From Squalus acanthias (taxonomy: Eukaryota), in contig CM059432.1 in assembly GCA_030390025.1 (NCBI GenBank), positions 17,052,001 to 17,116,000 on the forward strand: 64,000 nucleotides of DNA. Reading direction: 5' to 3'. Made by a program: the position numbers and the translations under genes. Under the pieces are notes generated by a model. That model saw nothing but the letters and a program-made list of their open reading frames with translations. It ran no database searches and was not told the origin of the DNA. Of this stretch, positions 12,372 to 58,959 are shown one piece after another (the first letter of the stretch is position 1; the number at the start of each line of letters is the position of its first letter).

Positions 12372-12402
12372 GACAAGAGCATAGTGCAACCTCTACCTTA
12401 CT

Positions 12403-18236: not shown

Positions 18237-18261
18237 GTAGAGGTTGCACTATGCTTCTGAG

Positions 18262-25229: not shown

Positions 25230-26860
25230 ATCACGTCCTATATGACTGTGACGAAGATAAATTGTCACTCGTCCTTGACCTGTCTGCAGCCTTTGACATG
25301 GTTGACCACACCATCCTCTTCCAACGCCTCTCCACCGTCGTCCAGCTGGAAGGAACTGTACTCGCCTGTTTCCATTCTTATCTATCTTATCTATGACGGG
25401 AACGGTAGCATAGTGGTTATGTTACTGGACTAGTAAACCAGAGGCCTGGACTAATGATCCGGAGACATGAATTCAGATCCCACCATGGCAGCTGGGGAAT
25501 TTAAATTCAGTTAATTAAACAAATCTGGAATAAAAAGCTAGTATCAGTAATGAATGACCATGAAACTACCGGATTGTTGTAAAAACCCATCTGGTTCACT
25601 AATGTCCTTCAGGGAAGGAAATCTGCCGTCCTTACCCGGTCTGGCCTATATGTGACTCCAGACCCACAGCAATGTGGTTGACTCTTAACTGCCATCTGCC
25701 ACTCAGTTGTATTCACCACCTTCGAGGGCAATTAGGGATGGCAATAAATGCTGGCCTTGCTGGTGACGTCCACATCCTGTGAATAAATAAAAAAAGTCAT
25801 AGCCAGAGAATCACCTGCAATGGCTTCTCTTCCCGCTCCCGCACCGTTACCTCTGGTATCCCCTAAAGATCTATCCTTGGGCCCCTTCCAATTTCTCATC
25901 TACATGTTGCCCCTCAGCAACATAGCATCAGTTTCCACGACACCCAGCTTTACCTCACCACCACCTCCTCTCTCAACTGTATCTAAATTGTCAGATTGCT
26001 TGTCTGACATCCAGTACTGGATAAGCAGAAATTTCATCCAACTAAACATTGGGCAGACTAAAGCCATTGACTTCAGGCCCGCCACAAACTCCGTTCCCTA
26101 GACACCGACTCCATCCATCTCCCTGGCAACTGTCTGAGGCCGAATCAGACTGTTCGCAACCTTGGTGTCATATTTGACCTCGAGGTGAACTTCCGACCAC
26201 ATATCCGCACCATCACTAAGACCACCTATTTCCACCTCCGTAACATCGCCCGACTCCGCCCCTGCCTCAGCTCATCTGCTACTGAAACCCTCATCTATGC
26301 CTTTGTTACCTCTAGACTTTACTATTCCAATGCACTCTTGGCCGGCCTCCCACGTTCTACCCTCTGTAAACTTGGTCATCCAAAGCTCTGCTGCCCGTGT
26401 CCTAACACCCATCACCACTGTGCTCGCTGACCTACATTGGCTCCTGGTTAAGCAACACCTTGATTTTTAAAATTCTCATCCTCATTTTCAAATCCTTCCA
26501 TGGTCTCGCCCCTCCCTATCGCTGTAATATCCTCCAGTCCTCTGAGATATCTGCGCTCCTCCAATTCTGGCCTCTTGCACATCCCCGATTTTAATCGCTC
26601 CATCATTGGCAGCTGTGCCTTCAGCTGTTGAGGCCCTAAGCTCTTTCCTCCTTTATGACCTACCTCTTTGACCAAGCTTTTGGTCATCTACCCTAATAGC
26701 TCCTTATGTGACCAGCGCCTTGGGACGTTTTACTACGTTGAAGGTGCTATAAAAATGTAAGTTGTTGTCGGTGTCAAATTTTGTTCGATTACGCTCCTGT
26801 GAAGCGCCTTGGGACATTTTACTACTTTAAAGGTGCTATATAAATGCATGTTGTTGTTGT
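25230..26860 (+). mobile_element. L2-clade LINE 3' fragment, decayed, interrupted by a SINE at 25398-25795
   Basis: LDLSAAFDMVDHTIL, HIRTITKTTYFHLRNIAR, AFVTSRL-Y-NALL, LHWL; tail GTGAAGCGCCTTGGGAC...TATAAATGCATGTTGTTG. Confidence 0.82.
25398..25795 (+). mobile_element. Bipartite tRNA-headed SINE made of the 5' ~310 nt and the 3' ~85 nt of the LINE at 42977-47153
   Basis: GGGAACGGTAGCATAGTGG head; body matches the reverse complement of ~46865-47153; tail GGGCAATTAGGGATGGCAATAAATGCTGGCCTTGC...AATAAAAAAA matches the LINE 3' end. Confidence 0.85.
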
Positions 26861-31719: not shown

Positions 31720-32011
31720 CCTTGAGGAGGTGATGGTGGGTCTTCCTCTTGAATCATTGCAGTCCATGTGGTATTGTAGCAGTTTTTTTTTATACACTTC
31801 AGAGGGCAGTTAATAGTCAACCACATTGGTCACATATAGGCCAGGCCGAGTAAGAACCGCAGGTTTCCCTCCCTAAAGGACATTAGTGAACCAGTTTTGT
31901 TTTTACAACAGTCCAACAGCTTTCATTGCCACTTTTACTGATGACCAGCTTCTTGATTTCCAGATTTTTAAAAACTGAATTTAAATTATCAAACTGCCAT
32001 GATGGGATCTG
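31720..32011 (-). mobile_element. Diverged bipartite derivative of the tRNA-headed LINE, with a different deletion junction
   Basis: CAGAGGGCAGTTAA...CCCTAAAGGACATTAGTGA...CTGAATTTAAATT matches the 5' body; TTGAATCATTGCAGTCCATGTGGT matches the LINE 3' end near 43077. Confidence 0.65.
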
Positions 32012-32649
32012 TACGTCACCAAATTTTTTTAAGGTTAATCTTACACATACAAATTAACTTCAACATAAAAGTAGGGAGTTTGTCAAACAGTGACGAACAA
32101 TGTAAAAGACTTCAAGAACATGTAGAACGGTTAAAGGAATGGAGGTGGCAATGTGGAGAAGGGTGAGATAATGTATTCTGGAAGGAAAAATGAGGGATGT
32201 CAATATATACTCGATAGAAAGATGCTGAAGGGTGTGGTTGAACAGAAACACCTAGTGGTTCCAAAACCCTGAAACTTCAAGAGCAGGTAGATTAAGCCAT
32301 CAAAATGGCCAAGGGCATTTGGATTTTTGGAAAAAGGAGGATAGAATACAAAAGCAACAGAATTGAGAAATTTGTCAACAGGCAATGGTTAAGCCACAGT
32401 TAGAATCTGTGTACAGTTTTGGGCACCCTATTATAGAAGGGACGCTAAAGCCACAGTAGGTGCAAAGTTGATTCACCAGGATGATGCCTAGGATAAGAAA
32501 CTATAGTTAGAAGAGGAGATTTGAGATACTGGCACTGCAGCAGAGAAGAATAAAATGAAATTTAATAAGAGGATTTGAAAATTTTGAAGGACTTTGATGG
32601 GGTGAATAAGACGACTATTTTGTCTGTTTGGGGACTCAATGACAAGGAA

Positions 32650-37067: not shown

Positions 37068-37263
37068 CGAAGGCACAATTTGGTGGAATGGAAAATCATT
37101 TCCAAGTCTATTTACAATTGGTGTTGGAAATGTAAAACAGTCACATGATTTAATCAGCATTAAAAAGAAATAGAGGCAATGTAACCTGAGACCATGCTAC
37201 CTTACCTTTCCATGTGATAGTACCAAGGGTTGTGGATAGAATTCCCTTCTTTATGTACATTTT

Positions 37264-37965
37264 GGGCCAAAAATTCGGCACTTGCTGGGTGAGTACGCAC
37301 TGTGTACTCACCCGTAAGGCCTCCTGAAGTGCCGGTTTCCTGCATACACGTGCCAGGAGAGGCTGCGCACATGCAGCAAACTTAGGTTTTTTTTCAGGTT
37401 TCTCCGGGAGGGTAAGTATTGAAGAGGCTGCACTTTTAAAAAGGAGGCGCAAGACCCGTTTTCAACAAGGTTAATTAAAGTGGTTAATTAATTACAATTT
37501 AAAAATTTTTTCAACAGGTTTATCTTTTTTAGATACTTTAAAGAAAGGTAAGTTTATTTTTAGCACTGTTAAAAAGTATTTTAATTTTTTCAAATTAAAA
37601 TTTTGTTTAAAGTAGTTAATTTATTTAACTTATAGTTATTTTAAAAATGTGATGGTTTTAAAAAAATGTATTTGAAGTTTAGGTGTTGTTTTGGGGCCGA
37701 TTTCAATTCATAGATTTGACAGGTCCTGTCAAATCTATGAATGAAAGATGGTCTGCTGCCATTGGCTCTCCATGGCCCACGTGATCCCAGGGGATGCATC
37801 GCACTAACTACGCCCCTGGGACACGCAAGCACTGCGCGCCGACAGTTGGGGGAAGCCCAGGAGCTGAAGTCCCCGTGGGCCCAGAGGTCAGCGGCAGGCG
37901 CGGTCGGTAGGTGCGTGCGGGATCCTTGCACCCACAGGAAGCCAGGGAGCCTAATTTCTGGGCCT
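37264..37965. mobile_element. Non-autonomous DNA transposon (MITE; GGGCC termini, probably Harbinger/PIF type)
   Basis: Imperfect TIRs GGGCCAAAAATTCGGC / GCCTAATTTCTGGGCC; internal hairpins; second copy in opposite orientation at 46076-46842. Confidence 0.8.
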
Positions 37966-39577: not shown

Positions 39578-42143
39578 GAAACATAGAAACATAGAAGATA
39601 GGAGCAGGAGTAGGCCATTCGGCCCCTCGAGCCTGCTCCGCCATTCAATGCGATCATGGCTGATCATCCAAATTCAGTACCCTGTCCCTGCTTTCTCCCC
39701 ATATCCCTTGATCCCCTTAGCCTTAAGAAATATATCTAACTCCTTCTTGAATATATTTAATGAGTTGGCCTCAACTTCCTTCTGTGTTAGAGAATTCCAC
39801 AGGTTCACCACTCTCTGGGTGAAGAAATTCTTCCTCATCTCAGTCCTAAATGGCTTACCCCTTATCCTTAGATGGTGACCCCTGGTTCTGGACTCCCCCG
39901 CCAATGGGAACATCCTTCCTGCGTCTAGTCCTGTTAGAATTTTATAAGTTTCAATGAGATCCCCGCTCATTCTTCTAAACTCTAGTGAATATAAGCCTAA
40001 TCGACCCAATTTCTCTTCATACGTCATTCCTGCCATCACAGGTATCAGTCTGGTGAATCTTCGCTGCACTCCCTCCATGGCAAGAACATCCTTCCTCAGA
40101 TAAGGTGACAAAACTGCACACAATACTCAAGGTGTGGTCTCACCAAGGCCCTGTACAACTGCTCGAATCCTCTCGCTATGAAGGCCAACATACCATTTGC
40201 CTTCTTAACCGCCTGCTGCACCTGCATGCTTACCTTCAGTGACTGGTGCACAACGACACCCAGGTCTCGTTGCACTTCCTCTTTTCCCAATCTGTTGCCG
40301 TTCAGATAATAATCTGCCTTCCTGTTTTCGCATTTATCCACATTGGGCAGATGCATGGCAGATGCAGTATAATCACCCAACCTGTCCAAATCATACTGGA
40401 GTTTCTCTGCATCCTCCTCACAGCACACACGCCCACCCAGCTTTGTGTCGTCTGCAAACTTGGAGATATTACATCTAGTTCCCTCGTCTAGATCATTAAT
40501 ATATACAGGAAACTGTTTGGTATCCGGCACCGACGGGACCGGCGTGGTGCCGGTTGATCAAAAGTTCCGGATAACGGAGAGTTATATCTACCGAGGCTAT
40601 TTTTAACAAACAAAAATCAGACTCCTGTTACTGCCGTGTTCGGACTTCCGACAGTGCCAGGAGGCCGAGTAGTGGCACTTTGGAGAACTACCCCCACTGA
40701 CTAACTCGGCGTTCGCGGGAGACTCGGACTCGGCAACATTGCCGGTTATTTGAGAGGAGTTTTCGGAGTACTCGGCGTTCGCGGGAGACTCGGACTCGGA
40801 CTCGGCAACATTGCCGGTTATTTGAGAGGAGTTTTCGGAGTATGATTTTTGCCGGTTAAGAGAGAATATTTAGGTGCCGGTTAAACAAGAGTTTCCTGTA
40901 ATGTGAATAGCTGGGGTCCTAGCACTGATCCCTGCGGTACCCCACTAGTCACTGCCTGCCACTCGGAAAAAGACCCGTTTATTCCAACTCTTTGCTTCCT
41001 GTCTGCCAACCAGTTTTCTATCCAAGTCAGTACCTTACCCCCAATCCCATGTGCTTTAACTTTGCTTGCTAATCTCTTATGCGGGACCTTATCGAAAGCC
41101 TTCTGAAAGTCCAAATACACCACATCCACTGGTTCTCCCTTATCTATTCTACCAGTTACATCCTCAAAAAATTCCAGTAGATTAGTCAAGCATGATTTAC
41201 CTTTTGTAAATCCATGTTGACTTTGTCCGATCCTGTCACTGTTTTCCAAGTGCTCTGCTATTACATCTTTTATAATGGACTCTAGCATTTTCCCCACTAC
41301 CGATGTCAGGCTTACCGGTCTATAATTCCCCATTTTCTCTCTACCACCTTTTTTAAATAGTGGGGTTACATTAGCTACCCTCCAATCCATGGGAACTGTT
41401 CCAGAGTCGATAGAATTTTGGAAGATGACCAGCAATGCATCTACTATTTCTAGGGCCACTTCCTTAAGTACCCTAGGATGTAGATTATCAGGCCCTGGGG
41501 ATTTATCGGCCTTCAATCCCGTCAATTTCCCTAACACCATTTCCCTACAAATACTGATTTCATTCAATTCCTCCCTCTCATTCGACCCTATGTTCCCCGA
41601 CATCTCTGGGAGGTTATTTGTGTCCTCCTTTGTGAAAACAGAACCAAAGTATGTATTTAATTGGGCTGCCATTTCTTTGTTCCCCATTATAAATTCCCCT
41701 GATTCTGACTGCAAGGGACCTACGCTTGACTTCACCAATCTTTTTCTCTTCACATATCTATAGAAGCTTTTACAGTCAGTTTTTATGTTCCCTGCAAGCT
41801 TACTCTCATACTCTATTTCCCCCCTCTTAATTAATCCCTTTGTCCTCCTTTGCTGAATCCTAAACTGCTCCCAATCCTCAGGTTTGCTGCTTTTTCAGGC
41901 CAATTTATATGTCCTCTCCTTGGATCTTATGCTATCCCAAATTTCCCTTGTTAGCCACGGTTGAGTCACCTTTTTTGTTTTATTTTTATGCCAAACAGGG
42001 ATGAACAAATTCTGTAGTTCATCCATGCGATCTTTAAATGTTTGCCATTGCCTATCCATTGTCAACCCTTTAAGTAACATTCCCCAGTCCATCCTAGCCA
42101 ACTCACGCCTCATACCATCGTAGTTTCCTTTATTTAAATTCAG
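39578..42143 (-). mobile_element. 5'-truncated CR1 nested in the Harbinger
   Basis: ORFs 39674-40123, 40096-40530, 40881-41753 and part of 41895-42203; AAACATAG-repeat tail at 39578; closely related to 61049-64000. Confidence 0.92.
40506..40898. mobile_element. 393-bp non-autonomous Tc1/mariner (pogo/Tigger-like) element inside the CR1 RT
   Basis: TA on both sides (40504-40505, 40899-40900); imperfect 26-bp TIRs CAGGAAACT...CCGGCACC; ~66-bp internal tandem duplication; CR1 sequence is continuous when it is removed. Confidence 0.85.
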
Positions 42144-42976
42144 AGTACGAAGACTCCTCAGAGGAAATCGTACCTGCTGAGGACACACCGTTACAGGATA
42201 CATGCATTGCAGGCACCAGCGCAGATACTAACACATCGGTTGGGACTTTCAGTCGGGTAGATGGGCCGGCACCTGGTGACTCTCATGGCACAAATGAGAA
42301 GGAGCAGGCAGTGGTGGCAAGGACAGCAGAGGAGAGTACGTGCAGATGGCGCCATCCTCTCCAAGCACTGCTCAACAGGACAGAGATGCAGAACCCCTGG
42401 GGGCCAGCAAGGAAAAGAAGAATGCAGTTGTGTGAGGTATTGGTATTCCTGCCTGACACACTGTCCACTATGGAAGAGAAGATGGAGGAGTTCATTTCCA
42501 CCATATGTGGGGTGATGTCGCAGGATTTTTTAACTCTGCAATGTACTATGGAGTGTGTGGCCACCTCCATGGAAATTGCAGCCAGGTGCTCACATGAGCC
42601 ACTGCTACCAGCCATTGTAGCTTGCTTACGGCCACTGTGCACACTCTGGGAATGAATATTTGTTCTAGAATGGATACATTGGTGGACATAGTAGATCGGG
42701 TCTTCTAAGGCATTGCTGATCTTCTCCAGTCTGTTTTCCCGCAGATGTGTAGGACTGATGTGCCGCTGCGTCAGGAGAGGTAGAATGGGCAAAGCAAATG
42801 CAGACCTTTTCTCAGCACGTCTTGGCCATTGCCACGCCCTCAACCAGTACCTGACGTGGTTGGTCAGGGATGCCCTGATAGGCACGTGTGTGCAGCCTAT
42901 GGCACCCTGCACTTGTGGGAAGCCAGCCAGAGCTTCAAACCCCAATGCTTTCTCAATCTGACTGTTGTCATCAACT

Positions 42977-45900
42977 TTTCTTTTTATTCGTTTATGGGAT
43001 GTTAGTGTTGCTGGCAAGGCCAGCATTTATTGCCCATCCCTAATTGCCCTTGAAAAGGTGGTGGTGAGCCGCCTTCTTGAACAGCTGCAGTCCGTGTGGT
43101 GAAGGTACTCCCACAGAGCTGTGAAGACGGGACTTCGTCTCCACAATGACTGTACGGTGGTCACTGCTACCAATACTGTCATGGACAGATGCATCTGCGA
43201 CAGGTAGATCGCAGCTGGGTCAAATTCCTGGAACTCCCTACCTAACAGCGACGCTCACATCCCACAAACAAATAAAAAAAAAAGGTAGGGAGTTCCAGGA
43301 TTTTGACCCAGTGGCGATGAAGGATCGGCGATATACTTCTAAGTCAGGATGTTGTGTGACTTGGAGGGAAACTTGGATGTGGTGGTGTTCCCATGCGCCT
43401 GCTGCCCTTGTTCTTCTAGGTGGAAGAGGTCGTGGGTTTGGGAGGTGCTGCCGAAGAAGCCTTGGCGAGTTGCTGCAGTGCATCTTGTAGATGGTACACA
43501 CTGCAGCCACGGTACGCCGGTGGTGGAGGAAGTGAATGTTTAAGGTGGTGGATGGGGTGCCAATCAAGCGGGCTGCTTTGTCCTGGATGGCGTCGAGCTT
43601 CTTGAGTGTTGTTGGAGCTGCACTCATCCAGGCAAGTGGAGAGTATTCCATCACATTCCTTACTTGAGCCTTGTAGATGGTGGAAAGGCTTTGGGGAGTC
43701 AGGAGGTGAGACACTCTCCGCAGAATACCTAGCCTCTGACCTGCTCTTGTTGCCACAGTATTTATGTGGCTGGTCCAGTTAAGGTTCTGATTAATGGTGA
43801 CCCCCCCAGGATGTTGATAGTGGGGGATTCGGCGACGGTAATGCCGTTGAATGTCAAGGGGCGGTGGTTAGACTCTCGCTTGTTGACACTTCTGTGGTGC
43901 GAATGTTACCTGCCACTTATCAGCCCAAGCCTTAATGTTGTCCAGGTCTTGTTGCATGCATTCATTGACTGCTTCTTTATCTGAGAAGTTGTGAATGGCA
44001 CTGAACACTGTGCAGTCATCAGTGAACATTCCCAATTTCTCACCTTATGTTGGAGGGAAGGTCATTGATGAAGCAGCTGAAGATGGTTGGGCCTAGGACA
44101 CTGCCCTGAGGAACTCCTGCAGCGATGTCCTGGGGCTGTGATGATTGACCTTCAACCACCACAACCATCTTCCTTTGTGCTAGGTATGACTCCAGCCAGT
44201 GGAGAGTTTTCCCCCCAATTCCCATTGATTTCAGTTTTACTAGGGCTGCTTGATGCCACACTCGGTCAAATGCTGCCTTGATGTCTAGGGCTGTTACTCT
44301 CACCTCACCTCTGGAATTCAGCTCCTTTGTCCATGTTCGGACCAAGGCTGTAATGCGGTCGGGAGCCGAGTGGTGTTGGCGGAACCCAAACTGGGCATCA
44401 GTGAGCAGGTTATTGGTGAGTAAGTGCCACTTCATAGCACTGTCTATGACACCTTCCATCACTTTGCTGATGATTGAGAGTAGACTGTTGGGGTGGAAAT
44501 TGGCCGGATTGGATTTGTCCTGCTTTTTGTGGACAGGACATACCTGGGCAGTTTTCCACATTGTCAATAGATGCCAGTGTTGTAGCTGTACTGGAACAGC
44601 TTGGCTAGAGGCGCGGCTAGTTCTGGAGCACAAGTCTTCAGCACGATAGCTGGGATGTTGTCGGGGCCCATAGCTTTTGCTGTATCCAGTGCACTCAGCC
44701 GTTTCTTGATATCACGTGGAGTGAATTGGCTGAAGGCTGGCTTCTGTGATGGTGGGGACCTCAGGAGGAGGCCGATATGGATTATCCACTCGGCACTTCT
44801 GGCTGAAGATGGTTGCAAAGGCTTCAGCCTTGTCTTTTGCACTCACGTGCTGGGCTCCACCATCATTGAGGATGGGAATGTTCATGGAGTCTCCTCCTCC
44901 TGTTAGTTGTTTAATGGTCTACCACCACTCACGACTGGATGTGGCAAGATTGCAAGCTTTGATCTGATCCATTGATTGTGGGATCGCTTAGCCCTGTCTA
45001 TAGCATGCTGCTTCTGATTTTTAGCATGCATGTAGTCCTGTGTTGCTGCTTCTCCAGGTTGGCATCTCATTTTTAGGTATGCCTGGTGCTGCTCCTGGCA
45101 TGCTCTTCTACACTCCTTATTGAACCAGGGTTGGTCCCCTGGCTTGGTGGTAATGGTTGAGTGAGGGATATGCTGGGCCATGAGGTTACAGATTGTGGTG
45201 GAATACAATTCTGCTGCTGCTGTTCGCCCACAGCGCCTCATGGATGCCCAGTTTTGAGCTGCTAGATCTGTTCAGAATCTATTCCATTTAGCACGGTGGT
45301 AGTGCCACACAACACAATGGAAGGTGTCCTCAGTGTGAAGTTGGGACTTCGTCTCCACAATGACTGTGCGGTGGTCACTGCTACCAATACTGTCATGGAC
45401 AGATGCATCTGCAACAGGTAGATTGGTGAGGACGAGGTCAAGTAGGTTTTTCCCTCGTTTTGGTTCTCTCCGCACCTGTCACAGGCCCAGACTGGCAGCT
45501 ATGTCCTTCAGGACTCGGCCAACTCGGTCAGTAGTGGTGCTACCGGGACACTCTTGGTGATGGACATTGAAGTCCCCCACCCAGAGTATATTCTGTGCCC
45601 TTGCTCCTCTCAGTGCTTCTTCCAAGTGGTGTTCAACATGGAGGAGTACTGATTCATTAGCTGAGGGATGGCAATAGGTGGTAATCACCAGGAGGTTTCC
45701 TTGCCCATGCTTGACCTGAAGCCATGACACTTCATGGGGTCCAGAGTCAATGTTGAGGACTCCCAGGGCCACTCCTTCCCGACTGTATACTACTGTGTCG
45801 CCACCCCAGGTGGGTCTGTCCTGCTGGTGGGACAGGACATACCCAGGGATGGTGATGGAGGAGTTTGGGACATTGGCTGAAAGGTATGATTCTGTGAGTA

Positions 45901-47153
45901 TGACTATGTCGGGCTGTTGCTTGACTAGTCTGTGTGACTCCCAATTTTGGCACAAGTCCCCAGATGTTGGTGAGGAGGACTTTGCAGGGTCGACTGGGCT
46001 GGGTGTGCCGTTGCCGTGTTCGTAGCTGGTGCTGAGGTCGATGCCGGGTGGTCCATCCGGTTTCATTCTTATTATTGGCCCAGAAATTCGCCTCTCCGGC
46101 TTGCCGCGGGGGTAAGGATCGCGCGCGCTCTTACCTACCGCGCCTGCCGTTGTGTTTTTGGGCCCACGGGAACTTCAGCTCCTGGTCCTGCTCCAAGAGC
46201 CGGTGCGCAGTGCTTGCGTTTCCCAGGGGCGTAGTTAGTGAGATGCGTCCCCTGGGATCACGTGGGCCATGGAGAGCCAATGGCAGCAGACCATCTTTCA
46301 TTCATAGATTTGACAGGAGACCTGTCAAATCTGTGAATTGAAATTGGCCCCAAAAGAACAGCTAAACTTAAAATACATTAAAAAAAACCCCATCACATTT
46401 ATAAAATAACTATATAGTTAAATAAATTAACCACTTTAAACAAAAATTTAAATTTTTGAAATAATTAAAATACTTTTTAAAAGTGATAAAAATAAACTTA
46501 CCTTTCTTTAAAGTATCTTAAAAAGATAAACCTGTTGAAAAAAATTAAAAATTATACTTAATTAACCACTTACCTTGTTGAAAACGGGTCTTCCGCCTCC
46601 TTTTTAATAGCGTAGTTTCTTCACTACTTACCCTCGCGTAGAAACCTGAAAAAAAATCTAAGTTTGCTGCGTGCGCGCAGCCTCTACCGCGCACGCGGTT
46701 CACCTAGGAACCGCCCCCTTCACCATACCGGAAGTTCCGGTTTCCCGCGCATGCGCAGTGCATGCAGGAAACCGGCACTTCGGGACGCATTACGAGTGAG
46801 TACGGACTGTGTACTCACCCGGGAAGGGCCGATTTTTGGCCCAATGTGTTTCGTAGCAGTTTGTTACAACTGAGAGACTTGCTAGGCCATTTCAGAGGGC
46901 AGTTAAGAGTCTGCGACATTGCTGTGGGTCTGGAGTCACATAAAGGCCAGACCAGGTAAGGACGGCAGATTTCCTTCCCTAAAGGACATTAGTGACAATC
47001 CGATAGTTTCATGGTTACCATTATTCATACTAGCTTTTTTTATTCCAGATTTATTTAATTAACTGAATTTAAATTCCCCAGCAGCCATGGTGGGATTTGA
47101 ACTCACGTCTCTGGATTACTAGCCCAGTGACATTACCACTACACTACCGTTCC
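42977..47153 (-). mobile_element. Full-length single-ORF LINE (CR1-group, L2/Crack/Daphne-like; clade uncertain) with tRNA-like 5' head, degenerate
   Basis: CAACT TSD at 42972-42976 / 47154-47158 splits the Harbinger transposase. [66 protein letters not shown] boxes at the 5' end and an A-rich tail. Confidence 0.88.
46076..46842. mobile_element. Second copy of the GGGCC-terminated MITE, inserted in the LINE 5'UTR
   Basis: Reverse-complement homolog of 37264-37965. Confidence 0.85.
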
Positions 47154-49069
47154 CAACTGTGAAGGTGATATATCTATAAATAATGCATCGGTCACCTGCC
47201 TGATGCATTTGTGCGTGGCTGACTGTGACACCTTAGCTCTGACTCCTGTGGCTGCCTGGAAGGATGCGTAGAACTTGAGGGAGGTGGTGACTTTCACCGC
47301 CACTGTCATGGCATGGCCGCCAGGTCCAGCAGGCAGGAGGTCTTCGTCGAGGAGGCTGTAGAGGTCGGCGACCACCTGCCTTGGCATTCGTAGCCTTCCG
47401 AAAGCACCACTCCTCAGGCAGGTCAAGGAAGCTGAACCTCTGTCTATACGCCCTATTAGGTGGGTAAGGCCTATTGTGAACATGACCCCTCTGTTGCTGC
47501 CTTCTCTGCTGCTCACCTGCAATTCCCTCCTCAGCATGCCCTTGCTACTGGTGCTCCTTTTCCTCCTCCTCTCCTTCACTCCAATAGTGTACAGCTATAG
47601 CAGCATCCACAATCAACTTCTCCTTTTCCAAGTTGAAAGTATCAAAATCTCAATCCCAAACAAATTATTCTCACAAAACCATAGCCTACAATGAACTGAG
47701 AAAGCACCCGTGAGTGCAGCAGCTTTATTCAGATCGAGCCTCCTTTACTTTAACCACATTGATCGAGTTGCGACTATTTCTGCCACGGCTCTCCTGGTGA
47801 CCTTGCCGACCTGCTCGAACCCTGTGTAGCAGTCGTTAAAATCACATTGGAGTCCTAATTGCATCATATGATTAAATATATTCATGAGCTCGTTGGTCCA
47901 GATACTCCCCATTGCTAATATCACAGCTGTTTAACCGCTTGCCCGACCGTATCCCGCCCGTCGGTGGGGTGGTGTGGTTTAAAATCAAGGCCATTGTTTT
48001 TGGTGCTTCAAATCATTCAATTTCGCTCTTTTTGAATTGCATTGGTGTATATTTCCAATTGCCAATGGGCTTGTTTTTCAGATATTTTATCTCCCAATTC
48101 TTAACTCCTCCTCCAATTGTCGCTGCTCAAAATCTTTTTTTTGGTTTTGATATACGCAGCAGGAATTTATGTGCATGATATCCTGTTGCATTTCAGTGGT
48201 CCTGAGCTTTCTGACTCCTGATTATTGTTTCCTGTTCATGACAATAGCACACTGGGTTTAAAATTAGTGCATCTAAACGCCTTATTATGTGTGTCATCGA
48301 CTGACCTCAGAAGTCAGGCTCAAGGTGGTAGGTAGCTTGTGATACACACAAGATTGACCTCAAGGTTTCAGCAGCATCTTCAAGCCAACTTCTTTGGCAA
48401 AACCAATCAAACTCTGCAGGATGAGAACATAAGTACTGTGGCAAGTCTATTATGTACATTTTAAAATACACAATGTAATATTTTCAGAAGATACTGTTTA
48501 AAAACAGTTAATTTTTAAACTGTAGAAAATCAGTTTATTTTGTTTCCCTCCTAAAAATTGTCCTGCCATGCTTCAACCCTCACTACTGGACCTGGCTGCA
48601 GTTCCCACCTGATGATGTTGCTATGCTCCAAGATCTTACTGTGCTGCATGCTTTTGGATGGGAATTCCTAATATGGCAAAATGATTGAGATATTAACAAA
48701 TTCCTGTTTGTGGCAGAGTTTGATCTTGGAATAAAGCAGTGGCATCAGGCAGTAGCTACAGTCATGACTGGCAGTCAGAGATGAATTGGGGCAAAAGTAC
48801 TTCTCTGAAGAAAAGCTTGGGAAAAGAATGCTATCATGAACCTGTGGAAGAGGGAAAGAGAATCTCCGTGATCTGAGGGAAGGGGAAGAGTGCTCGAGTG
48901 AACTGGGGAAGGAGCACTGCACCAACGTTATCCTTGCCAGAGTCTTGCTTAGCATTTTTTGTGACTAGTGCTTTATCTCAATTTATCTGTGGCACTTGCT
49001 GTGACACAGCGGGAAGGTATATGATATGTTCCCAGGAGTCTATCAATTTTGGGGTTCAGCTGTAAGTAA

Positions 49070-50470
49070 GAACATGAGAAAATAAGAATTAGGAGCAGGA
49101 GTAGGCCACGCGTCCCCACGAGCCTGCTCCACCCTTCAGTAAGATCATGGCTGATCTTCAACCTCAACTCCACTTTCCTGCCCTATCCCCATATCCCTTA
49201 ATTCCTCTGGAGTCCAAAAATCCGTCTATCTCGGCCTTGAATATACTCAACGACTGAGCATCCACAGCACTTTGGGGTAGAGAATTGCAAGGATTCACAA
49301 CCCTCTGAGTGAAGAAATTCCTCCTCATCTCGGTCTTAAAAGGCCGGCCCCTTATCCTGAAACTATGCCCCCTAGTTCTAGACTCTCCAGCCAGGGGAAA
49401 CAACCTCTCAGCATCTACCTTGTCAGTCCCCCTCAGAATCTTATAAGTTTCAATGAGATCATCTCTCCTTCTTCTTAACTCCAGAGAGTCCAGTCTACTC
49501 AATCTCTCCTTATACGACAACCCTCTCATCCCAGGGATCAATCTAGCGAACCTTCGATGCACCGTATGTCCTTTCTCCGATAAGGAGACCAAAACTGTGC
49601 ACAGTACCCCAGATGTGGTCTCAGCATAGCCCTGCACAATTGTAATAAGACTTCCTTACTCTTGTACTCCAACCCTCTAGCAATAAAGGCCAACATACCA
49701 TTTGCCTTCCTAATTGCTTGTTGTACCTGCATGCTGACTCACTGTGTTTCTTGTATTAAGACACCCAAATCTCTGAACACCAACATTTAATATTTTCTCA
49801 CCATTTAAAAAATATTCTGTTTTTCTATTCTTCCTACCAAAGTGAATAACCTCACATTTCCCCACATTATACTCCATCTGCCACCTTATTGCCCACTCAC
49901 TTAACCTGTCTATATCCCTTTGCAGGCTCTTTGCGTCTTCCTCACATCTTACTTTTCCACCTAGCTTTGTATCATCAGCAAACTTGGATGCATTGCACTC
50001 AGTCCCTTCATCTAAGTCATTAATATAGATTGTAAATAGCTGAGGCCCAAGCACTGATCCTTGCGGCACCCCACTCGTTACAGCCTGCCAATCTGAAAAT
50101 GACCCGTTTATTCCTGTTCTCTGTTTTCTGTCTGTTGACCAATCCTTTATCCATGCTAATACCTTACCCCCAACCCCATGTGCCCTTATCTTGCTTAACA
50201 ACCTTTTATGTGGCACCTTATCGAATGCCTTTTGGAAATCCAAATATACTACATTCACTGGTTCTCCTTTATCTACCCTGCTAGATACATCCTCAAAAAA
50301 CTCTAATAAATTTGTCAAACACGATTTCCCTTTCATAAAACCATGTTGACTCTGCCTAATCATATTATGATTTTTTTAAGTACCCTGTTACCACTTCCTT
50401 AATAATGGATTCCAGCATTTTCCAGACAACTGATGTCAGGCTAACTGGCCTGTAGTTCCTGGTTTTCTCT
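49070..50470 (-). mobile_element. CR1 3' fragment
   Basis: ORFs 49710-50363, 49538-49732 and 49164-49637 carry CR1 RT/C-terminal motifs. Confidence 0.92.
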
Positions 50471-50929
50471 GTTTGAACAGTCTGGATTTAAACATGTATG
50501 CTTATGTGTACTTTCCCATGGCTTCTTGTGTGGAGTTGTCTGGCTCCTGCATGTCATCTCTTAATAGGAAAAATAGACATCTGGAATTTTCTTTGAGGAA
50601 TAGTGAGCATATTTTTCAGCCATACCATTGTACTGCGTATCCTGGAGCATCAGTGTGACACGTGACTGCATGGCTTGTTAAGTCCTTTTGCTTCGATGAA
50701 GACAGTTTCATTTTGTTTAATCTCTAACAAAAATACTGGATTGATCATAATTATTCTACAATATTGTGTTTTTAACGAGATTTATACACTGTTTAAATCC
50801 TCAGTGGCAGATTATTAAAGATGTTGTTGAATGTTCAATACACCGCAGACAAGTTTTTAAAGTTACACTTTTCCCCATTTCCCCCCCTGTGTGACTCTCC
50901 AATTAAGAGCCTTAGAAGACAAGGCAATC

Positions 50930-51013
50930 ATGGCTGATGTCCTACCTAATGCAATATTGGAAATATGTGTAGTTGTGGGAGCATCTAACGAAAAATTGAA
51001 GGAAGTTTGCCAG
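50930..51013 (+). CDS. DENND3: DENN domain-containing protein 3, first coding exon (MADVLPNAILEICVVVGASNEKLKEVCQ)
   Basis: ATG in ATCATGG context, upstream polypyrimidine tract and AG, CAG|GTAAGT donor (phase 0); resembles the DENND3 N-terminus as recalled (LPSGLLELCALLGA). Confidence 0.88.
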
Positions 51014-51324
51014 GTAAGTAGTATTTAAAAAACAAAAACTGTTTCTGGTGTCTACCATTTACCAATGCTGAAAACTGGACAGTTGGAGATACCCGAGAAT
51101 GGTATTGGGCTGACTTTCAGTGTGATTTGCCTTCCCATGTGGCTCCTAGTGGACACGCCTGGCCTCTGGTGTCTCCCCACAGTATCATGGCAGGATTGGC
51201 AACTTAGGATGACTGTGAGGCAAGGTCAAGACCGACAGCACAGTTGGTTCCATGTTGCACTATTTCACCATGCCCCTGCAGTTTTTTTTTAAGTGCTTTT
51301 TAAAAGCAAGATTTGGTTTTATTA

Positions 51325-51636
51325 TCACCCTTTGAAGTGTCTGAAAGTACAACACATAAAATGAATTACTGTGAGGTGTGTGACCATTATTTTGTTGGTA
51401 ACCATTGTGTGCACAGCAAGCTCCCGCAAACCAGCAGATGAATCACCAGTTAATCTATTTTTAATGGCGTTGGTTAAAGAAGGCATGTTGGCCAGGTCAC
51501 TGGGAGAAATCCGTGCTCTTCCTGGAATCATGAAATGGAATTTTAACATCCAACCGAATAGGCAGTTGGGACCTCATTTTAACATTTCATTTGAAGTATG
51601 GCACCTCTGACAATTCAGTATCCTTTCAATACTGCA
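51325..51636 (-). mobile_element. Old diverged DeuSINE-like copy
   Basis: Degenerate TTGTGTGCACAGCAAGCTCCC...GGCACCTCTGACA match to the other copies. Confidence 0.6.
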
Positions 51637-53021
51637 ATTTTGTGAATTTATTAGCTCCCTTCCTGCTCATATGTAGCTCATCCTGGCAGAATAGCTCCCT
51701 TCTTCCCGAAAACTGGTGCCGCTGGCCCATAAATTTTAAACCTTCTTTCTAACACCAGCCCTTTAGCTAGTTGTTTGAGCTCCCTTATCTTCATAACCTT
51801 CCTGATTCCAGCATGGTTGGGGGACTAATGTAGTGATTACCACCCTTGTTGTCCAGCTCCTACACCTACTACCCAAACTCCGAAACCTGCTTCCTTTTGC
51901 AGGCCTTCAGGCTTTTCTTTTCCTATATCGTTGGCTTCCACATGGGCTATGATAACTGGCTGCTCTACCTCCCCATCCATGATCTTCAGTTTTTCTTAAA
52001 TGCTCCTTACCTTACACCTGAGAGGCAACAAAGGATCAAGGACACTCGGTCACAACATCAAAGGATAGAGTCCACCTCTCCAACTAATGAGTTTCCTATT
52101 ACTACTGCATTCCCAACTGAATTGCTAATCTCTTCCCCTTGAACCATCTCCTGTTTTTTGATAACATTGTAATCTATTTGATGGTCTTGCTCACGGGAAG
52201 CCAATGCTTGAAACTTGTTGGAGAGGGTGATTTTGCTCTGGACATTACTGCTCTAGCCTGTCACTTTCTCTGACCTGTGGATAGTCGCCACTCCTCCTTC
52301 TACCACCGATTTCTCCCTATCTCAGTGGGCTACCACCTTCTGAAACCCTTGCTCCAGAAACTTTCCTCCCTCCCTGATGTGTGGACTATCTCCAATGGCG
52401 CCTGAATTCTCAGATCTTGAGCTCAAGTAATTTTGGAGACGCTTCCTGTAGATATGTTTGTCCGAGTCAACATCTGCTACTCAACTCCAATATCCTGCAA
52501 AGAGCTTAATTTACCTTCCTGTGCTGTCATTCGTACTATGAATGTTAGTTAAGTTTTTATTCTTATCTATTTAAATTTCAATTAAACAACTGTCCCCTCC
52601 CGCCCCCGCTTCAAATCCCCACTCTAGTTAACTCTGGAAATTATCATCGCTAAACCTGATCCTGTCCTTGCCGAATATCCACAAATGTGCACTTTCCAGT
52701 TGAGGTCACTTCATTGCCATCAGTTAACATAGTGCAGAATTGGGGTTGAACCAGGGACTTTCTAGTCTATAATATAGTACTATGCATCAGGTTTGGTGCT
52801 TTATTGTACAGACCAGCAAAACCTTAAATGGTTGTTTGAGCTAGCGTCTTGTATGTACTGTATATTTAAAAAAAAAATTGTGTTTTGTCATAAAGTGCAA
52901 TATAAAGACTACTTAAGCATTTACTTTACCTGAATTAGTTCATAGTTCTTGTAATACACTTGTCAATTATATTTTCAGTAATGCTTGTATGTAGCATTGG
53001 TTTGTCTGTTTCTTTCTTTAG

Positions 53022-53304
53022 GCAGCCTATAAAGGTAGTGCTCGATCGAGTAATTGTCTTAGCCCAGAGGTTCGATCAGTTCATGTTCCTCCATTTGTTA
53101 GCAAAGAGGACAGTCAGCCTGGTTACGTTGCTCAAAACTTTAGCAGAACTCCAAGACGCCGCTCATTCAAAAAGAAAAAGGAATACAAGCGTGCAACTTC
53201 TGCTTCAAGCAACGCAAATTCAGGTCACAAAGAGCCACAGACTGAAGAATTTAGCATTCCAAATAATATAGATCTCCACGGGCTACTTCAGTTATGTTTC
53301 CCAG
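53022..53304 (+). CDS. DENND3: DENND3 coding exon 2 (AAYKGS...PEVRSVHVPPFVSKEDSQ...IDLHGLLQLCFP)
   Basis: TTTCTTTAG acceptor, G|GTAAGT donor; 283 nt open in frame with the previous exon; uDENN motifs PEV..VPPF.SKEDSQ and LCFPG. Confidence 0.93.
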
Positions 53305-53971
53305 GTAAGTCATTTATATTTGAAAATCACTTATTTTTCTCCTCTGCACATCCAACCAGGCGAGGACCTTTTACTAAACGTGACGGCACATTTTCTGCTT
53401 TCATCACTGTTTTGTGATGAGTTTGGAATTCAACCCGAAGTACATGCCATGCTTGGGTATGTGTGCTTGTGTGTATTGTTTGCTTTTCTTCAGGTCTTAA
53501 CATTGCTTCCACCTGATCATTCTGCAGTTGAAGCCACAGTTATGGCCCTGAAATTGCGGTGTCTGCATGTGCGAAATCCGGAAATTGCGATCTGTCAAGT
53601 TACACCTTGACAGATCATCTGAACTGCCTGAAAACTCGGTATTGCTGGTGCAGAGTTGGGCTATTTGCCCAACAATTGCCCACACAACTCTTACGACTGG
53701 TAAAAGCAGGAATAGGGCTAGCTTGCATCAATGTAAGGGTATATATAAGGCTTAAATAAAACATTTAAAAATCCAAAATTATGCACATACACTTTAAATG
53801 AGTTTAGGCAAATATTGGCCCAGATTAAGATGTTTAAAATTATTTATCAAAATATAAATTTTTATTGAGATTGGTGTAATGAAGAAACTTACAAATAAAA
53901 TTGCAATTCAGTACATTGTATAATTAGAATTCTGTACATTGCATAATTATTTGGGGATTCCATTGCATATA

Positions 53972-56900
53972 GAACAGATCTAGCAGCTCAAACCTGGGCA
54001 TCCATGAGGCACTGTGGGCCATCAGCAGCAGCAGAATTGTATTCCACCACAATCTGTAACCTCATGGCCCGGCATATCCCTCACTCTACCATTACCATCA
54101 AGCCAGGGGACCAACCCTGGTTCAATAAGGAGTGTAGAAGAGCATGCCAGGAGCAGCACCAGGCATACCTAAAAATGCGGTGCCAACCTGGGGAAGCTGC
54201 AACATAGGACTACACGCATGCTAAAAAGCGGAAGCCGCATGCATGTAACACAATCAACGGATCAGATCAAAGCTCTGCAGTCCTGCCACATCCAGTCCTG
54301 AATGGTGGTGGACCATTCAACAACTAACTGCAGCAGGAGGCTCCATGAATATCCCCATCCTCCATGATGGTGGAACCAGCACGTGAGTGCAAAAGACAAA
54401 GCTGAAGCGTTTGCAACCATTTTCAGCCAGAAGTGCCGAGTGGATGATCCATATCAGCCTACTCCTGAGGTCCCCACCACCACAGAAGCCAGTCTTCAGC
54501 CAATTCAATTCACTCCATGTGATATCAAGAAATGGCTGAGTGCACTGGATACAGCAAAGGCTGTCGTGCTGAAGACTTGTGCTCCAGAACTAGCCGTGCC
54601 TCTAGCCAAGCTGTTCCAGTACAGCTATAACACTGGCATCTATCTGACAAAGTGGAAAAACTGCCCAGGTATGTCCTGTCCACAAAAAGCAATACAAATC
54701 CAATCCGGCCAATTACCACCCCATCAGTCTACTCTCAATCATCAGCAAAGTGATGGAAGGTGTCATCGACAGTACTATCAAGCAGTACTTACTCACCAAT
54801 AACTTGCTCACTGATGCCCAGTTTGGATTCCGCCAGAACCACTCTGCTCCAGACCTCATTACAGGCTTGGTCCAAAGATTAGCATGGAAAATTGAAGCTC
54901 ATGGGATAAAGGGGAAAGTATTGACGTGGATAGAGAACTGGCTGTCAGATAGAAAACAGAGAGTTGGAATAAACGGCTCATTTTCTGAATGGCAGGCAGT
55001 AACAAGTGGGGTACCACAGGGATCTGTCCTGGGTCCCCAGCTGTTCACAATTTATATTAATGACCTGGATCAGGGAGTCGAATGCAGCATTTCCAAATTT
55101 GCAGACGACACTAAACTAGGAGGGGGGGTGGGCTCAGAGGAGGAGACCAGGAAGCTCCAGAGCGATTTGGACAGACTGGGTGATTGGGCGGATAAATGGC
55201 AGATGCACTATAATGTGGACAAGTGCGAAGTTATCCACCTTGGGTGCAGGAACGGGAGGGCAAATTATTATTTAAATGGCAATAAATTGGGAGAGGGGGA
55301 AGTACAGAGAGACCTGGGTGTTCTTGTACACCAGTCACTGAAGGCGAGCATGCAGGTGCAACAGGCGGTCAAGAAGGCAAACGGTATGCTGGCCTTCATA
55401 GCAAAAGGGTTGGAATACAGGAACAGGGATACCTTGCTGCAGCTGTACAGGGCACTGGTGAGACCACACCTCGAGTACTGTGTACAGTTTTGGTCGCCTC
55501 ATCTGAGGAAAGATGTTCTTGCCATGGAGGGGGTGCAGCGGCGATTCACCAGGCTGATACCAGGAATGGCGGGATTGACCTATGAGGAGAGACTATGTAG
55601 TTTAGGGATGTACACACTGGAGTTTAGAAGATTGAGAGGGGACCTCATAGAAGTGTATAAAATTCTGACAGGTCTAGACAGACTAGATGCAGAAGGAATG
55701 TTTCCCTTGGCGGGTGAGAACAGAACTAGAGGACATAATTTAAGGATAAGGGCTAAACCATTTAGGACAGAAATGAGGGGGAATTTCTTCACTCAGAGAG
55801 TGGTGAACCTGTGGAACTCATTGCCACAGAGGGCAGTGTACGCCAGCTCATTAAATATATTTAAGAGGGAATTAGATCTATTTCTACAGGCAAAAGGGGT
55901 TAAGGGTTACGGAGAGAAGGCGGGGACGGGATACTGAATTGAAGGATCAGCCATGATCTCATTAAATGGCGGAGCAGGCTCGAAGGGCCGGATGGCCTAC
56001 TCCTGCTCCTATCTTCTATGTATCTATCTATGTATCTATGGACAAAAGAGCTGAATTCCAGAGGTGAGGTGAGAGTGACTGCCCTTGACATCAAGGCAGC
56101 ATTTGACCGAGTGTGGCATGAAGGAGCCCAAGTAAAACTGAAGTCAATGGGAATCGGGGCAAAAATTCTCCACAGGCTGGAGTCATACCTAGCACAAAGG
56201 AAGATGGTTGTGTTGGTTGGAGGTCAATCATCACAGCCCCAGGACATCGCTGCAGGAGTTCTTCAGGGCAGTGTCCTAGGCCCAACCATCTTCAGCGGCT
56301 TCATCAATGACCTTCCCTCCAACATCAGGTCAGAAATGGGGATGTTTGCTGATGACTGCAGTGTTCAGTTCCTTTCGCAACTCCTCAGATAATGAAGCAG
56401 TCCATGCCCGCATGCTGCAAGACCTGGACGACATTCAGGCTTGGGCTGATAAGTGGCAGGTAACATTTGCACCACACAAGTGCCAGGCAATGACTATCTC
56501 CAACAAGCGAGCGTCTGACCACCGTCCCTTGAAATTCATCAGCATTACCATCGCCGAATCTCCTACCATCAATATCCTGGGGGGGGGTCACCATTGACCA
56601 GAAACTTAACTGGACCAGCCACATAAATACTGTGGCAACAAGAGCAGGTCAGAGGCTGGGTATTCTGCGGCGAGTGTTTCACTTCCTGACTCCCCAAAGC
56701 CTTTCCACCATCTACAAGCCACAACTCAGGAGTGTGATGGAATACTCTCCACTTGCCTGGATGAGTGCAGCTCCAACAACACTCAAGAAGCTCGACACCA
56801 TCCAGGACAAAGCAGCCCGCTTGATTGGCACCCCATCCACCACCTTAAACATTCACTCCCTCCACCACTGGCGACTGTGACTGCAGTGTGTACAATCTAC

Positions 56901-57250
56901 AAGATGCACTGCAGCAACTTGCCAAGGCTTCTTCGGCAGCACCTCCCAAACCCGCGACCTCTACCACCTAGCAGGACAAGGGCAGCAGGCGCGTGGGGAC
57001 ACCACCACCTCCAAGTTCCCCTCCAAGTCACACACCATCCTGACTTGGAAGTATATAACTTCATCGTCGCTGGGTCAAAATCCTGGAACTCCTTCCCTAA
57101 CAGCACTGTGGGAGTACCTTTTACTATACGGACTGCAGCGGTTCAAGAAGGCGGCTCACCACCACTTTCTCAAGGGCAACTAGGGATGGGCAATAAATGC
57201 TGACCTTGCCAGCGATCCCACATCCCATGAACGAATTAAAAATAAAAAAT
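53972..57250 (+). mobile_element. 5'-truncated copy of the same single-ORF LINE family as 42977-47153, interrupted by a CR1
   Basis: Homologous to the reverse complement of ~45275-42977; tail AATTAAAAATAAAAAAT. Confidence 0.88.
54877..56037 (+). mobile_element. CR1 3' fragment with open RT C-terminal frame, nested in the LINE
   Basis: ORF 54750-55937 from RLAWKIEAHG onward; ATGTATCT-type tail; host LINE resumes at ATGGACAAAAGAG. Confidence 0.92.
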
Positions 57251-57678
57251 AATTTGGGGATTCCCTTCATAAATGATTCCATTGTTTTTGTTTAAATTGA
57301 ATTCTGAAGCATTTTCAAAATAGCAAACTTGCTATTGTATCTGCAACATGTTAAAACTGTTATTGTTCGATGACAGTTGGCAATCTTGTGGGCCTGACTC
57401 GATCTACAGGCTCCAGGAAGATAGCATATGGTCCTAGTGATTGAAAACTGTGAAGAATATAAAAAGTTTTTTATATACCATTACAATAAACCGAATTAAA
57501 AATGGAGCATTAAAAAAACCTTGTTTTCAAACTGGGATTATTTTGAGGAATATAAACCCATTGTTTGTCTGCATATAAGTAGCATCATTGCATGGTGAAA
57601 TTTTTGCTGATTACGTACAATATTAAACTGCGCAAAAATAATATGCTGTTCTGCAGAATATTGCTTGTTCATTTACAG

Positions 57679-57794
57679 GAGAACTGCAAATAGAGACTGA
57701 ACCAAAGGAGGACCACTATCATTTCCTGGTGTTCACAGATGTTTTTGGAACAAGGACCTATGGTGTGGTAGTGCAGTTCTACAGACCTATTCAG
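57679..57794 (+). CDS. DENND3: DENND3 coding exon 3 ((G)[38 protein letters not shown]); gene continues beyond the window
   Basis: TTTACAG acceptor (phase 1, matching exon 2), CAG|GTATAT donor; uDENN signature HFLV.TD..G.RTYG. Confidence 0.94.
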
Positions 57795-58959
57795 GTATAT
57801 AAAGTGTACAGTAATAACTCCTTTTAACTTGAAAAATGCAGTGTAGATTCTCACCTGTAGGTTTCCACAGGAAATGTGTGTCTTTTGCAATCTGTCTTAA
57901 TTAGGCAGTTGCCAAATGGAAGTGCTGAGTTCCTGCCAGTGCTTTTCTCAAACTGATGTGCTAAGTGTTGTACTTTTTTTGGTCTGATTGACTGACTGAT
58001 ACTGGATGCTAACCATGTTGGGAATTGATGGGGGTGGGGGCTTTGGGTGGTGGGAAGAATAAATGTGTACTAGTCAGTGCACTAATCACTTGTACACATG
58101 TGCAAGACTTCCCTACAGAGAAAAGGAATAACTATGGGAAATTTCCCCTTTTTGATACTCAGCAACTCTTGCAGGTGGAATTTAAAATAGAATTTTACAT
58201 AACGTGAAGTGTATTAGTTTAACCAATGTACCTTTGCAAATAGTGAGTTCTCGTTTCTGGCTAGGCTGTTAAATCATAGCATCATACAATTTTATAAGCA
58301 CAGAAGGAGGCCATTTGACTCGTCATGCCTGTGCAAGCGCTGTGAAGGAGCTACCATCAGTTGCAGTCCCCTGCCCTTTCCCCATACCTTTTCAAAATTT
58401 TTCTTTTTCAAATATTTATTTACTCTCATAGATTCTGCTTCTACCACTATTTCTGGTAGGGCATTCCATATCCTAACAAGCTTCAGGCGAAAAAAAATCC
58501 AAACTTCTCGTTTTTTGGCTAATCTTAAATTTATGCCTTCTAATTACAGGGTTACTGACCAAAGAAAATAGTTTTTCCTGATGTCCCTTACCAAAATCCC
58601 TCATTAGTTTGAACATCTTAAGCTGATCTTCTCAATCTTTTTCTGCAAATCTTTTGTCTACCCCGTAACCACCTTCTATGTTTTTTTTAAAATTCCTAAC
58701 CTCTTACTTTTGTTTTTGGTGGTGATCTGAAATTTATACACTCTAGTTATCAGCTTCGTGATCAGTGAAAATAGTTTTTCCCAATAAACGCCTCATAATT
58801 TTGAACATTGGTAACATACGAACAATCACGGACAAGTAAAGACTCTCTGGTGCATCGAGCCTGTTCCACACAATTGCGATTCCTTGTGTATCACAATGTA
58901 TACTCGCCACCCCACCCGAAACCAGATATCCCCAACTATTCTAATTGTATTTTGGCTTC

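Follow-up and report, generated by a model that had tools for sequence, protein, structure and literature searches.

A tRNA-like head at the 5' end of the elasmobranch Zenon LINE family: a candidate RNA polymerase III promoter on a protein-coding retrotransposon

Introduction

In the textbook division, LINEs (long interspersed nuclear elements) are coding units that RNA polymerase II (Pol II) transcribes, and SINEs (short interspersed nuclear elements) are non-coding units that RNA polymerase III (Pol III) transcribes. Here, we describe a LINE at positions 42977-47153 (minus strand) of a 64,000-nucleotide stretch of Squalus acanthias DNA (GCA_030390025.1, contig CM059432.1, positions 17,052,001 to 17,116,000), the whole of which is termed the window. 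The element belongs to the elasmobranch Zenon LINE family of the CR1 group, an assignment that is well supported by sequence comparison. Copies from the genome and published consensuses show a tRNA-like head to be the fixed 5' end of this family. We propose that the head may serve as an internal Pol III promoter for the whole 3.3-kb coding RNA, a reading to which we give a probability of about 0.55.

A majority sequence was built from 29 near-full copies, which diverge from it by 2.2-5.1% outside CpG. It is about 3310 nt long and consists of the tRNA-like head, a leader extending to about nt 350, one frame, a short 3' untranslated region (UTR) and an A tail. The single stop-to-stop frame encodes an endonuclease and a reverse transcriptase (EN-RT) over 973 codons, nt 324-3245, and natural pieces of it are matched by the Pfam families RVT_1 and Exo_endo_phos. 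There is no room for an ORF1, the additional upstream open reading frame (ORF) of other LINEs, in the approximately 350 nt ahead of the frame, and no further frame longer than 120 codons is present in the majority sequence.

Zenon elements are ORF1-less and carry a poly-A tail. Stuart et al. 2026 (PMC13343379) describe them from hagfish, coelacanth and elasmobranchs and give the poly-A tail as unique to Zenon among CR1-group elements. The elasmobranch consensuses of that source are SquAca_Zenon-1/2/3, CarCar_, RhiTyp_, ScyCan_ and HypSab_Zenon-1. The first 400 nt of SquAca_Zenon-1 (3314 nt; supplement of PMC13343379) match our majority sequence almost letter for letter by eye. The element and the elasmobranch Zenons likewise share the lack of ORF1, one APE-RT frame, the A tail and a length of 3.2-3.3 kb, as members of the same family. 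The closest full-length homologues are 35-37% identical and are mostly unnamed proteins. A gene model of Heptranchias perlo (P0036), named as an aldo-keto reductase, contains about 220 residues of the Zenon ORF; this segment is probably a mis-annotated exon.

The tRNA-like head as the 5' end of the family

Two endonuclease-anchored genome searches gave 57 usable copies; the copy in the window, the locus that supplied the query (L269) and an older fragment (L286) were set aside. The first 10 nt of the head are reached in 23 of the 57, two near-identical duplicates included, and the other 34 end at scattered internal points with unrelated flanks. No alternative shared 5' sequence was found among these 57 copies. 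When the search was anchored in the head instead, with a query that favours LINE-type heads, 24 of 29 matches ran into the endonuclease, four jumped to the 3' tail and one did neither. The published Zenon consensuses of all five shark and ray species examined (by eye, over their first 400 nt) begin with a head bearing an A box and a B box. Both boxes are intact in the five species while the sequence between them varies, the ray B box being short of one base, and none of the five contains a T4 run in this interval. In contrast, the published Zenons of hagfish (two) and coelacanth (one) lack the head and carry runs of four or more T in their first 400 nt, again by eye.

These observations bear on the simplest alternative, namely that a SINE happened to insert beside a 5'-truncated LINE at one locus. 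SINE-like copies with the same head are common, as this explanation would have it, but the same head-to-ORF junction recurs in dozens of unlinked copies, in an older subfamily and in the consensuses of five species. Chance adjacency, the first of the refuting outcomes that the original prediction had named, is thereby excluded. The same prediction had proposed to check whether full-length copies start at the head within target-site duplications (TSDs). They do start at the head, but the TSDs did not generalize: of 34 two-ended copies, 7 have a TSD match of at least 5 bp (mismatched controls, 8.8%), with no match as long as 7 bp. At this rarity, TSDs were dropped as a family-wide test of the boundaries.

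A parent tRNA did not emerge from a genome search, which returned only Lys and Cys genes. For heads on distant relatives, Rfam gave no tRNA match in the 20 of 80 metagenome loci that were scanned, and relaxed ARAGORN matches were scattered and were left unused; these loci form a weak control because they are only 24-37% identical and are richer in T. Tandem arrays of tRNA genes, called Lys(TTT) by ARAGORN and spaced by about 1.8 kb, are present on contigs C1484, C2208, C29 and C3407 (loci L307-L336). In full-length copies, the two bases preceding the head are often AC or AT in otherwise unrelated flanks (for example L041, L059, L098, L109, L111 and L112); they may be additional bases that were templated by the source copies, or else untemplated ones. 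An extra 5' G was considered as a signature of capping and set aside, as it is indistinguishable from a templated G.

The copy in the window

The studied copy is full-length but decayed. It reads from 47153 to 42977 and lies within a decayed Harbinger-type transposase gene, flanked by a 5-bp TSD (AGTTG, equivalent to CAACT on the plus strand) at 47154-47158 on its 5' side and 42972-42976 on its 3' side. The host transposon has a copy elsewhere (L305) in which a single 5-mer joins the two flanks, as in an empty site, and a further copy (L306) matches Pfam DDE_Tnp_4 (E=6e-6), of the Harbinger type. Both the insertion and the TSD are therefore real, as the original prediction had read them. The two short host-transposase fragments in the window gave no Pfam match.

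The tRNA-like head occupies 47082-47153 on the minus strand and lacks a 21-nt duplicated hairpin of the majority sequence. An Rfam tRNA match (RF00005) spans 47148-47082 and scores 33 bits, where the gathering score is 29 (E=0.0013), in keeping with the head originally proposed; ARAGORN calls no tRNA gene there. The A-box-like motif, at 47136-47146, is found by eye in all five published consensus heads; the B-box-like motif, at 47093-47104, falls in the T-arm of the Rfam alignment and is likewise found in published heads. Next comes the conserved non-coding leader (46843-47081), a candidate translation signal in which Rfam finds nothing besides the tRNA. A miniature inverted-repeat transposable element (MITE) at 46077-46842, with a second copy at 37262-37964, was inserted later than the LINE. 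The main EN-RT frame, with an Arg-rich N-terminus, an APE endonuclease and a reverse transcriptase, follows at 43283-46076 on the minus strand, and an out-of-frame ATG that opens a 48-codon frame in the young family stands at 46064-46066. A copy-specific rearranged block at 43123-43282 contains an inverted copy of the tail and a 90-bp duplication of endonuclease sequence. The EN-RT frame closes with a stop codon within 43040-43122, and the 3' UTR stem-loop, with AATAAA in its internal loop, and a short A-rich tail lie at 42977-43039, all on the minus strand. The proposed order of head, leader and EN-RT frame without ORF1, interrupted by the MITE, was correct, but the ORF is not intact in this copy, which has stops and frameshifts.

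Between 47170 and 42960, the sense strand contains 15 runs of four or more T: 13 in the MITE, a T10 at 43283 that belongs to the inverted tail copy in the rearranged block, and a T4 at 43056. The earlier scan by eye, which saw no sense-strand TTTT in 43290-46075 and 46843-47153, holds for those intervals but left the T10 block at 43282-43123 outside them. The majority sequence has neither the T4 at 43056 nor the two T4 runs, at 54420 and 57119, of a second family copy in the window; the original prediction had read all three as mutations after insertion.

Scarcity of T-runs on the sense strand

Pol III terminates at runs of T, and the shortest terminators in assays of the B2 SINE were TTTT and TVTTT (PMC8466645). 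The whole sense strand of the majority sequence contains neither, and has seven T3 runs. Against a null of 5000 synonymous shuffles of the ORF, T4 and TVTTT together are depleted (0 observed, 3.49 expected, P=0.015), as are runs of three or more T (5 against 11.3, P=0.004), while neither the antisense mirror pattern nor runs of A, C or G depart from expectation. In the 29 copies there are 21 T4 runs, each at a position unique to one copy, and 15 copies have none. The ORF2 of a second LINE in the window, which we take to be Tx1/L1-like, served as a control matched in T content. Its 3.9 kb, at 20.8% T, hold 8 T4, 13 T4 or TVTTT and 36 runs of three or more T, and the difference in terminators from the Zenon family is significant (binomial P=7e-4). 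CR1 frames of the same genome (n=22) average 2.74 T4 per kb; the figure for 97 frames of the family, which lack mutual independence, is 0.27. Of 80 metagenome relatives, which are T-richer, all 54 with a frame of at least 450 aa have at least five T4. Phe makes up 1.85% of the family frame, below all 88 full-length homologues, and this bears on T-runs because Phe codons force TT. A looser set of 25 older copies showed no terminators over 2029 positions.

Several results weigh against terminator avoidance by a Pol III transcript. T4 alone is not significantly depleted in the ORF (0 against 1.83, P=0.12), and all null tests rest on a single majority sequence. When the TT count is held fixed, the deficits of T3, T4 and terminators disappear (P=0.58, 0.60 and 0.22), so the T-run deficit is suggestive only. 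Shuffles that are free of terminators still average 89 TT against the 75 observed; the primary signal is therefore avoidance of TT. Scarcity of TpT is described in a frog L2 as well (10.1101/788562), and two control frames were low on one measure each (T4 in 12403-14757, P=0.01; T3 in one CR1, P=0.03). In older copies, a run of four or more T often occurs about 110 nt into the head: an unbiased sample, whose anchor lay upstream of the run, has it in 14 of 30, with T3 as the mode. The majority reading of 20 older LINE copies is T4 at this site, with run lengths of 1 to 10. Because the tails described below drift in the same way, we tentatively read these older-copy runs in the head as drift from A to T after insertion. 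Apart from T-runs, a capped Pol II transcript could make use of two features of the young family, the ATG in good context and the AATAAA close to the tail.

Some of the same figures also speak for a rival explanation, in which Pol II makes the LINE RNA, either starting at a promoter inside the conserved leader or reading through from outside. The head would then be a captured SINE-type module, and the scarcity of T-runs would reflect avoidance of UU and UA or base bias. The TT count accounts fully for the T-run deficit, TA is also low (93 against 113), the frog L2 depletion offers a precedent, AATAAA stands about 45 nt before the tail, and Kojima 2018 (PMC5786205) holds that autonomous and bipartite LINEs are very likely Pol II transcripts. 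On the other side, the A and B boxes have stayed intact across five species despite the variable sequence between them, and of five LINE frames tested, only that of this family is short of TT (ratio 0.71 against 1.01-1.13 elsewhere). The headless Zenons carry T4 runs, and two poly(A)-signal hexamers lie within the first 135 nt of the element. We regard transcription by Pol II as the less likely account, albeit one to be taken seriously. Avoidance of Pol III terminators is one possible cause of the deficit among others. The originally proposed count of T4 and longer runs against a codon-shuffled null gave a split outcome: a deficit for T4 with TVTTT and for T3, on the sense strand and for T only, and no significant one for T4 alone or under the TT-fixed null.

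Translation of a frame without AUG

No Met occurs in the EN-RT frame ahead of residue 287, a point that lies beyond the endonuclease domain. In the young family, the out-of-frame ATG, at nt 352 of the majority sequence, opens 48 codons in good context directly ahead of the long frame, and it is also present in the published consensuses of the four other species. An older subfamily in the same genome, with the head attached, retains the G of this ATG in none of 19 clearly old copies. Most of the changes between old and young copies at nt 352-435 leave the residues of the long frame unaltered, the Arg-rich peptide being kept, and one of them creates a stop in the short frame. Inspection of the published heads by eye had suggested that ribosomes might pass from the out-of-frame ATG to the EN-RT frame by a -1 frameshift; these findings led us to reject it. 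As the older subfamily lacks the ATG and yet preserves the long frame through synonymous changes, initiation is likely to be non-AUG and near the A-rich end of the leader.

Between about nt 150 and 330, the leader hardly varies from one subfamily to the other or, by eye, across the five species. No structure was recognized in it: it matches no Rfam family, its folding z-score is 0.21 (copy L040), and the young and old majority leaders show no informative covariation.

The 3' end and short derivatives

A stem-loop fold is predicted for the 3' UTR (folding z-score -2.2), and AATAAA stands about 45 nt ahead of the tail. The A tails are short in the 112 tails surveyed. The run of T before the A tail is most often a single T (44 of 88 LINE tails); it reaches four or more in 17 of 88, and the longer runs differ from copy to copy. 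We considered these runs as copied Pol III terminators and rejected this in favour of the likelier drift after insertion, because a single T is the mode and the combined length of T and A stays near 10. The same growth of tail T-runs has been described for B2 (PMC8466645). A-runs that follow a T turn into T-runs at near-constant total length, both in tails and at about +110 in the head, even in copies that are about 3% diverged.

Head-plus-tail copies of 400-470 nt have many different joints, their 5' part ending at about nt 299-346 and their 3' part starting at about nt 3094-3241. We read them as repeated internal deletions. Head-plus-tail derivatives in the window are a SINE-like internal deletion form at 25398-25795 (plus strand) and an older, diverged one at 31720-32020 (minus strand). 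A second, 5'-truncated LINE copy of the family lies at 53972-57247 on the plus strand, split by a CR1 at about 54877-56037. An imperfect direct repeat of about 20 bp (53948-53971 and 57249-57273) brackets this copy and, by eye, exceeds any TSD of a full-length copy.

The abundance of short derivatives and the diversity of their joints would also suit a division of labour between two polymerases, in which Pol III makes the short head-plus-tail RNAs, and perhaps the full-length template, and the protein comes from rare capped Pol II transcripts. Such an arrangement would explain the terminator-free body without cap-independent translation. Nevertheless, unusual initiation is needed anyway, because the frame lacks an AUG whichever polymerase transcribes it, and LINE proteins usually act on their own mRNA. 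We regard a two-polymerase arrangement as quite improbable.

Proposed mechanism and significance

In the favoured reading, with Pol III transcribing the whole LINE, TFIIIC and TFIIIB at the A and B boxes of the head would recruit Pol III, which would read the terminator-free body and the A tail and continue to the next T-run in the flanking DNA. Transcription of Alu-type SINEs likewise runs through the A tail to a flanking T-run. The resulting RNA would lack an m7G cap, and its translation would start at a non-AUG codon immediately downstream of the A-rich stretch that closes the conserved leader. Target-primed reverse transcription of this RNA would follow, carried out by the EN-RT protein once bound to the 3' stem-loop. 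The 400-470-nt copies, which would behave as SINEs, would arise through repeated internal deletions. Sequence of the family appears in 20 of 24 listed public RNA runs, under six organism labels and in three metatranscriptomes, as contigs that hold no information on start, strand or cap.

A fuller version of this reading is that sharks and rays carry a high-copy autonomous, protein-coding Pol III retrotransposon with an uncapped 3.3-kb RNA, in which U-runs and Phe have been selected down and a leader of about 200 nt starts translation without cap or AUG. This combined claim is put forward tentatively, at odds slightly short of even. If it is true, the division between LINEs and SINEs is broken by a vertebrate LINE that has retained its tRNA-type promoter throughout sharks and rays, Pol III is able to make a 3.3-kb mRNA, and the leader is a natural signal for cap- and AUG-independent translation. 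Simple deletion would offer a direct route to new SINEs, the element being both a LINE and the parent of its own SINEs. The abundance of the family and its published consensus open the claim to a standard cell-culture retrotransposition assay. If Pol II is the polymerase, a modest annotation point and the AUG-less ORF remain.

Neighbouring features

Two copies of the two-ORF LINE that we presume to be Tx1/L1-like lie back to back at 16053-22161 (plus strand) and 8473-14757 (minus strand) and are 90-94% alike. In the plus-strand copy, the EN-RT frame is intact over 1306 codons and includes zf-RVT, and the zinc-knuckle ORF1 frame spans 727 codons. Between 24747 and 35914 lie four members of a different short repeat family (D1), about 300 nt long and 67-91% alike. 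Host-gene exons occur at 57679-57794 (plus strand) and at about 53023-53306, and a 38-residue piece gives a weak uDENN match (E=0.005) that is below the cut-off. If a host gene spans the region, the studied LINE copy would be intronic and antisense to it.

Comparison with known systems

The original prediction had cautioned that tRNA-like LINE heads might already be catalogued. The Zenon family is indeed catalogued, and a remark on its tRNA-like head was not found in the literature examined. The main text of PMC13343379, in the parts consulted, does not contain 'tRNA', 'pol III' or 'polymerase III', its supplement does not contain 'tRNA', and these parts mention neither the head, the scarcity of T-runs nor the AUG-less frame. 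Among open-access papers, we found none on a tRNA-headed or Pol III-transcribed autonomous LINE.

Known LINE RNAs that are not Pol II transcripts include those of R1 and R2, for which use of an internal ribosome entry site (IRES) has been proposed (PMC2881922). R2 rides on Pol I and a self-cleaving ribozyme, whereas an Rfam scan of 42000-58500 to E=5, which covers described folds only, found neither a ribozyme nor an IRES in the studied family, with only the tRNA above its gathering score. In C. elegans RTE-1, a 43-aa frame overlaps the main ORF (PMC1291365), while the short overlapping frame of the studied family is not preserved in the older subfamily.

The tRNA-derived SINEs (SINE2; T+ SINEs such as B2, PMC8466645) share with the studied LINE the tRNA head with A and B boxes, a terminator-free body, an A tail, and tail T-runs that grow in ageing copies. 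SINE2 elements are short and non-coding, in contrast to the studied LINE with its 3.3 kb and its own EN-RT, and only its deletion derivatives fit that class. The 3' end of T+ SINEs has AATAAA and a Pol III terminator before the A tail; the studied family has AATAAA but mostly no terminator. Persaeus, derived from a moth Zenon (PMC6740152), is a head-plus-tail derivative as well, but without tRNA similarity or a Pol III promoter. Bipartite non-autonomous LINEs and short internally deleted elements (SIDEs) of the RTE, Vingi, Ingi and R2 groups (PMC5786205) are likewise head-plus-tail deletion derivatives of single-ORF LINEs. In the model of Kojima drawn from them (PMC5786205), a tRNA head joins a non-coding derivative, whereas in the studied family the head stands on the coding element itself.

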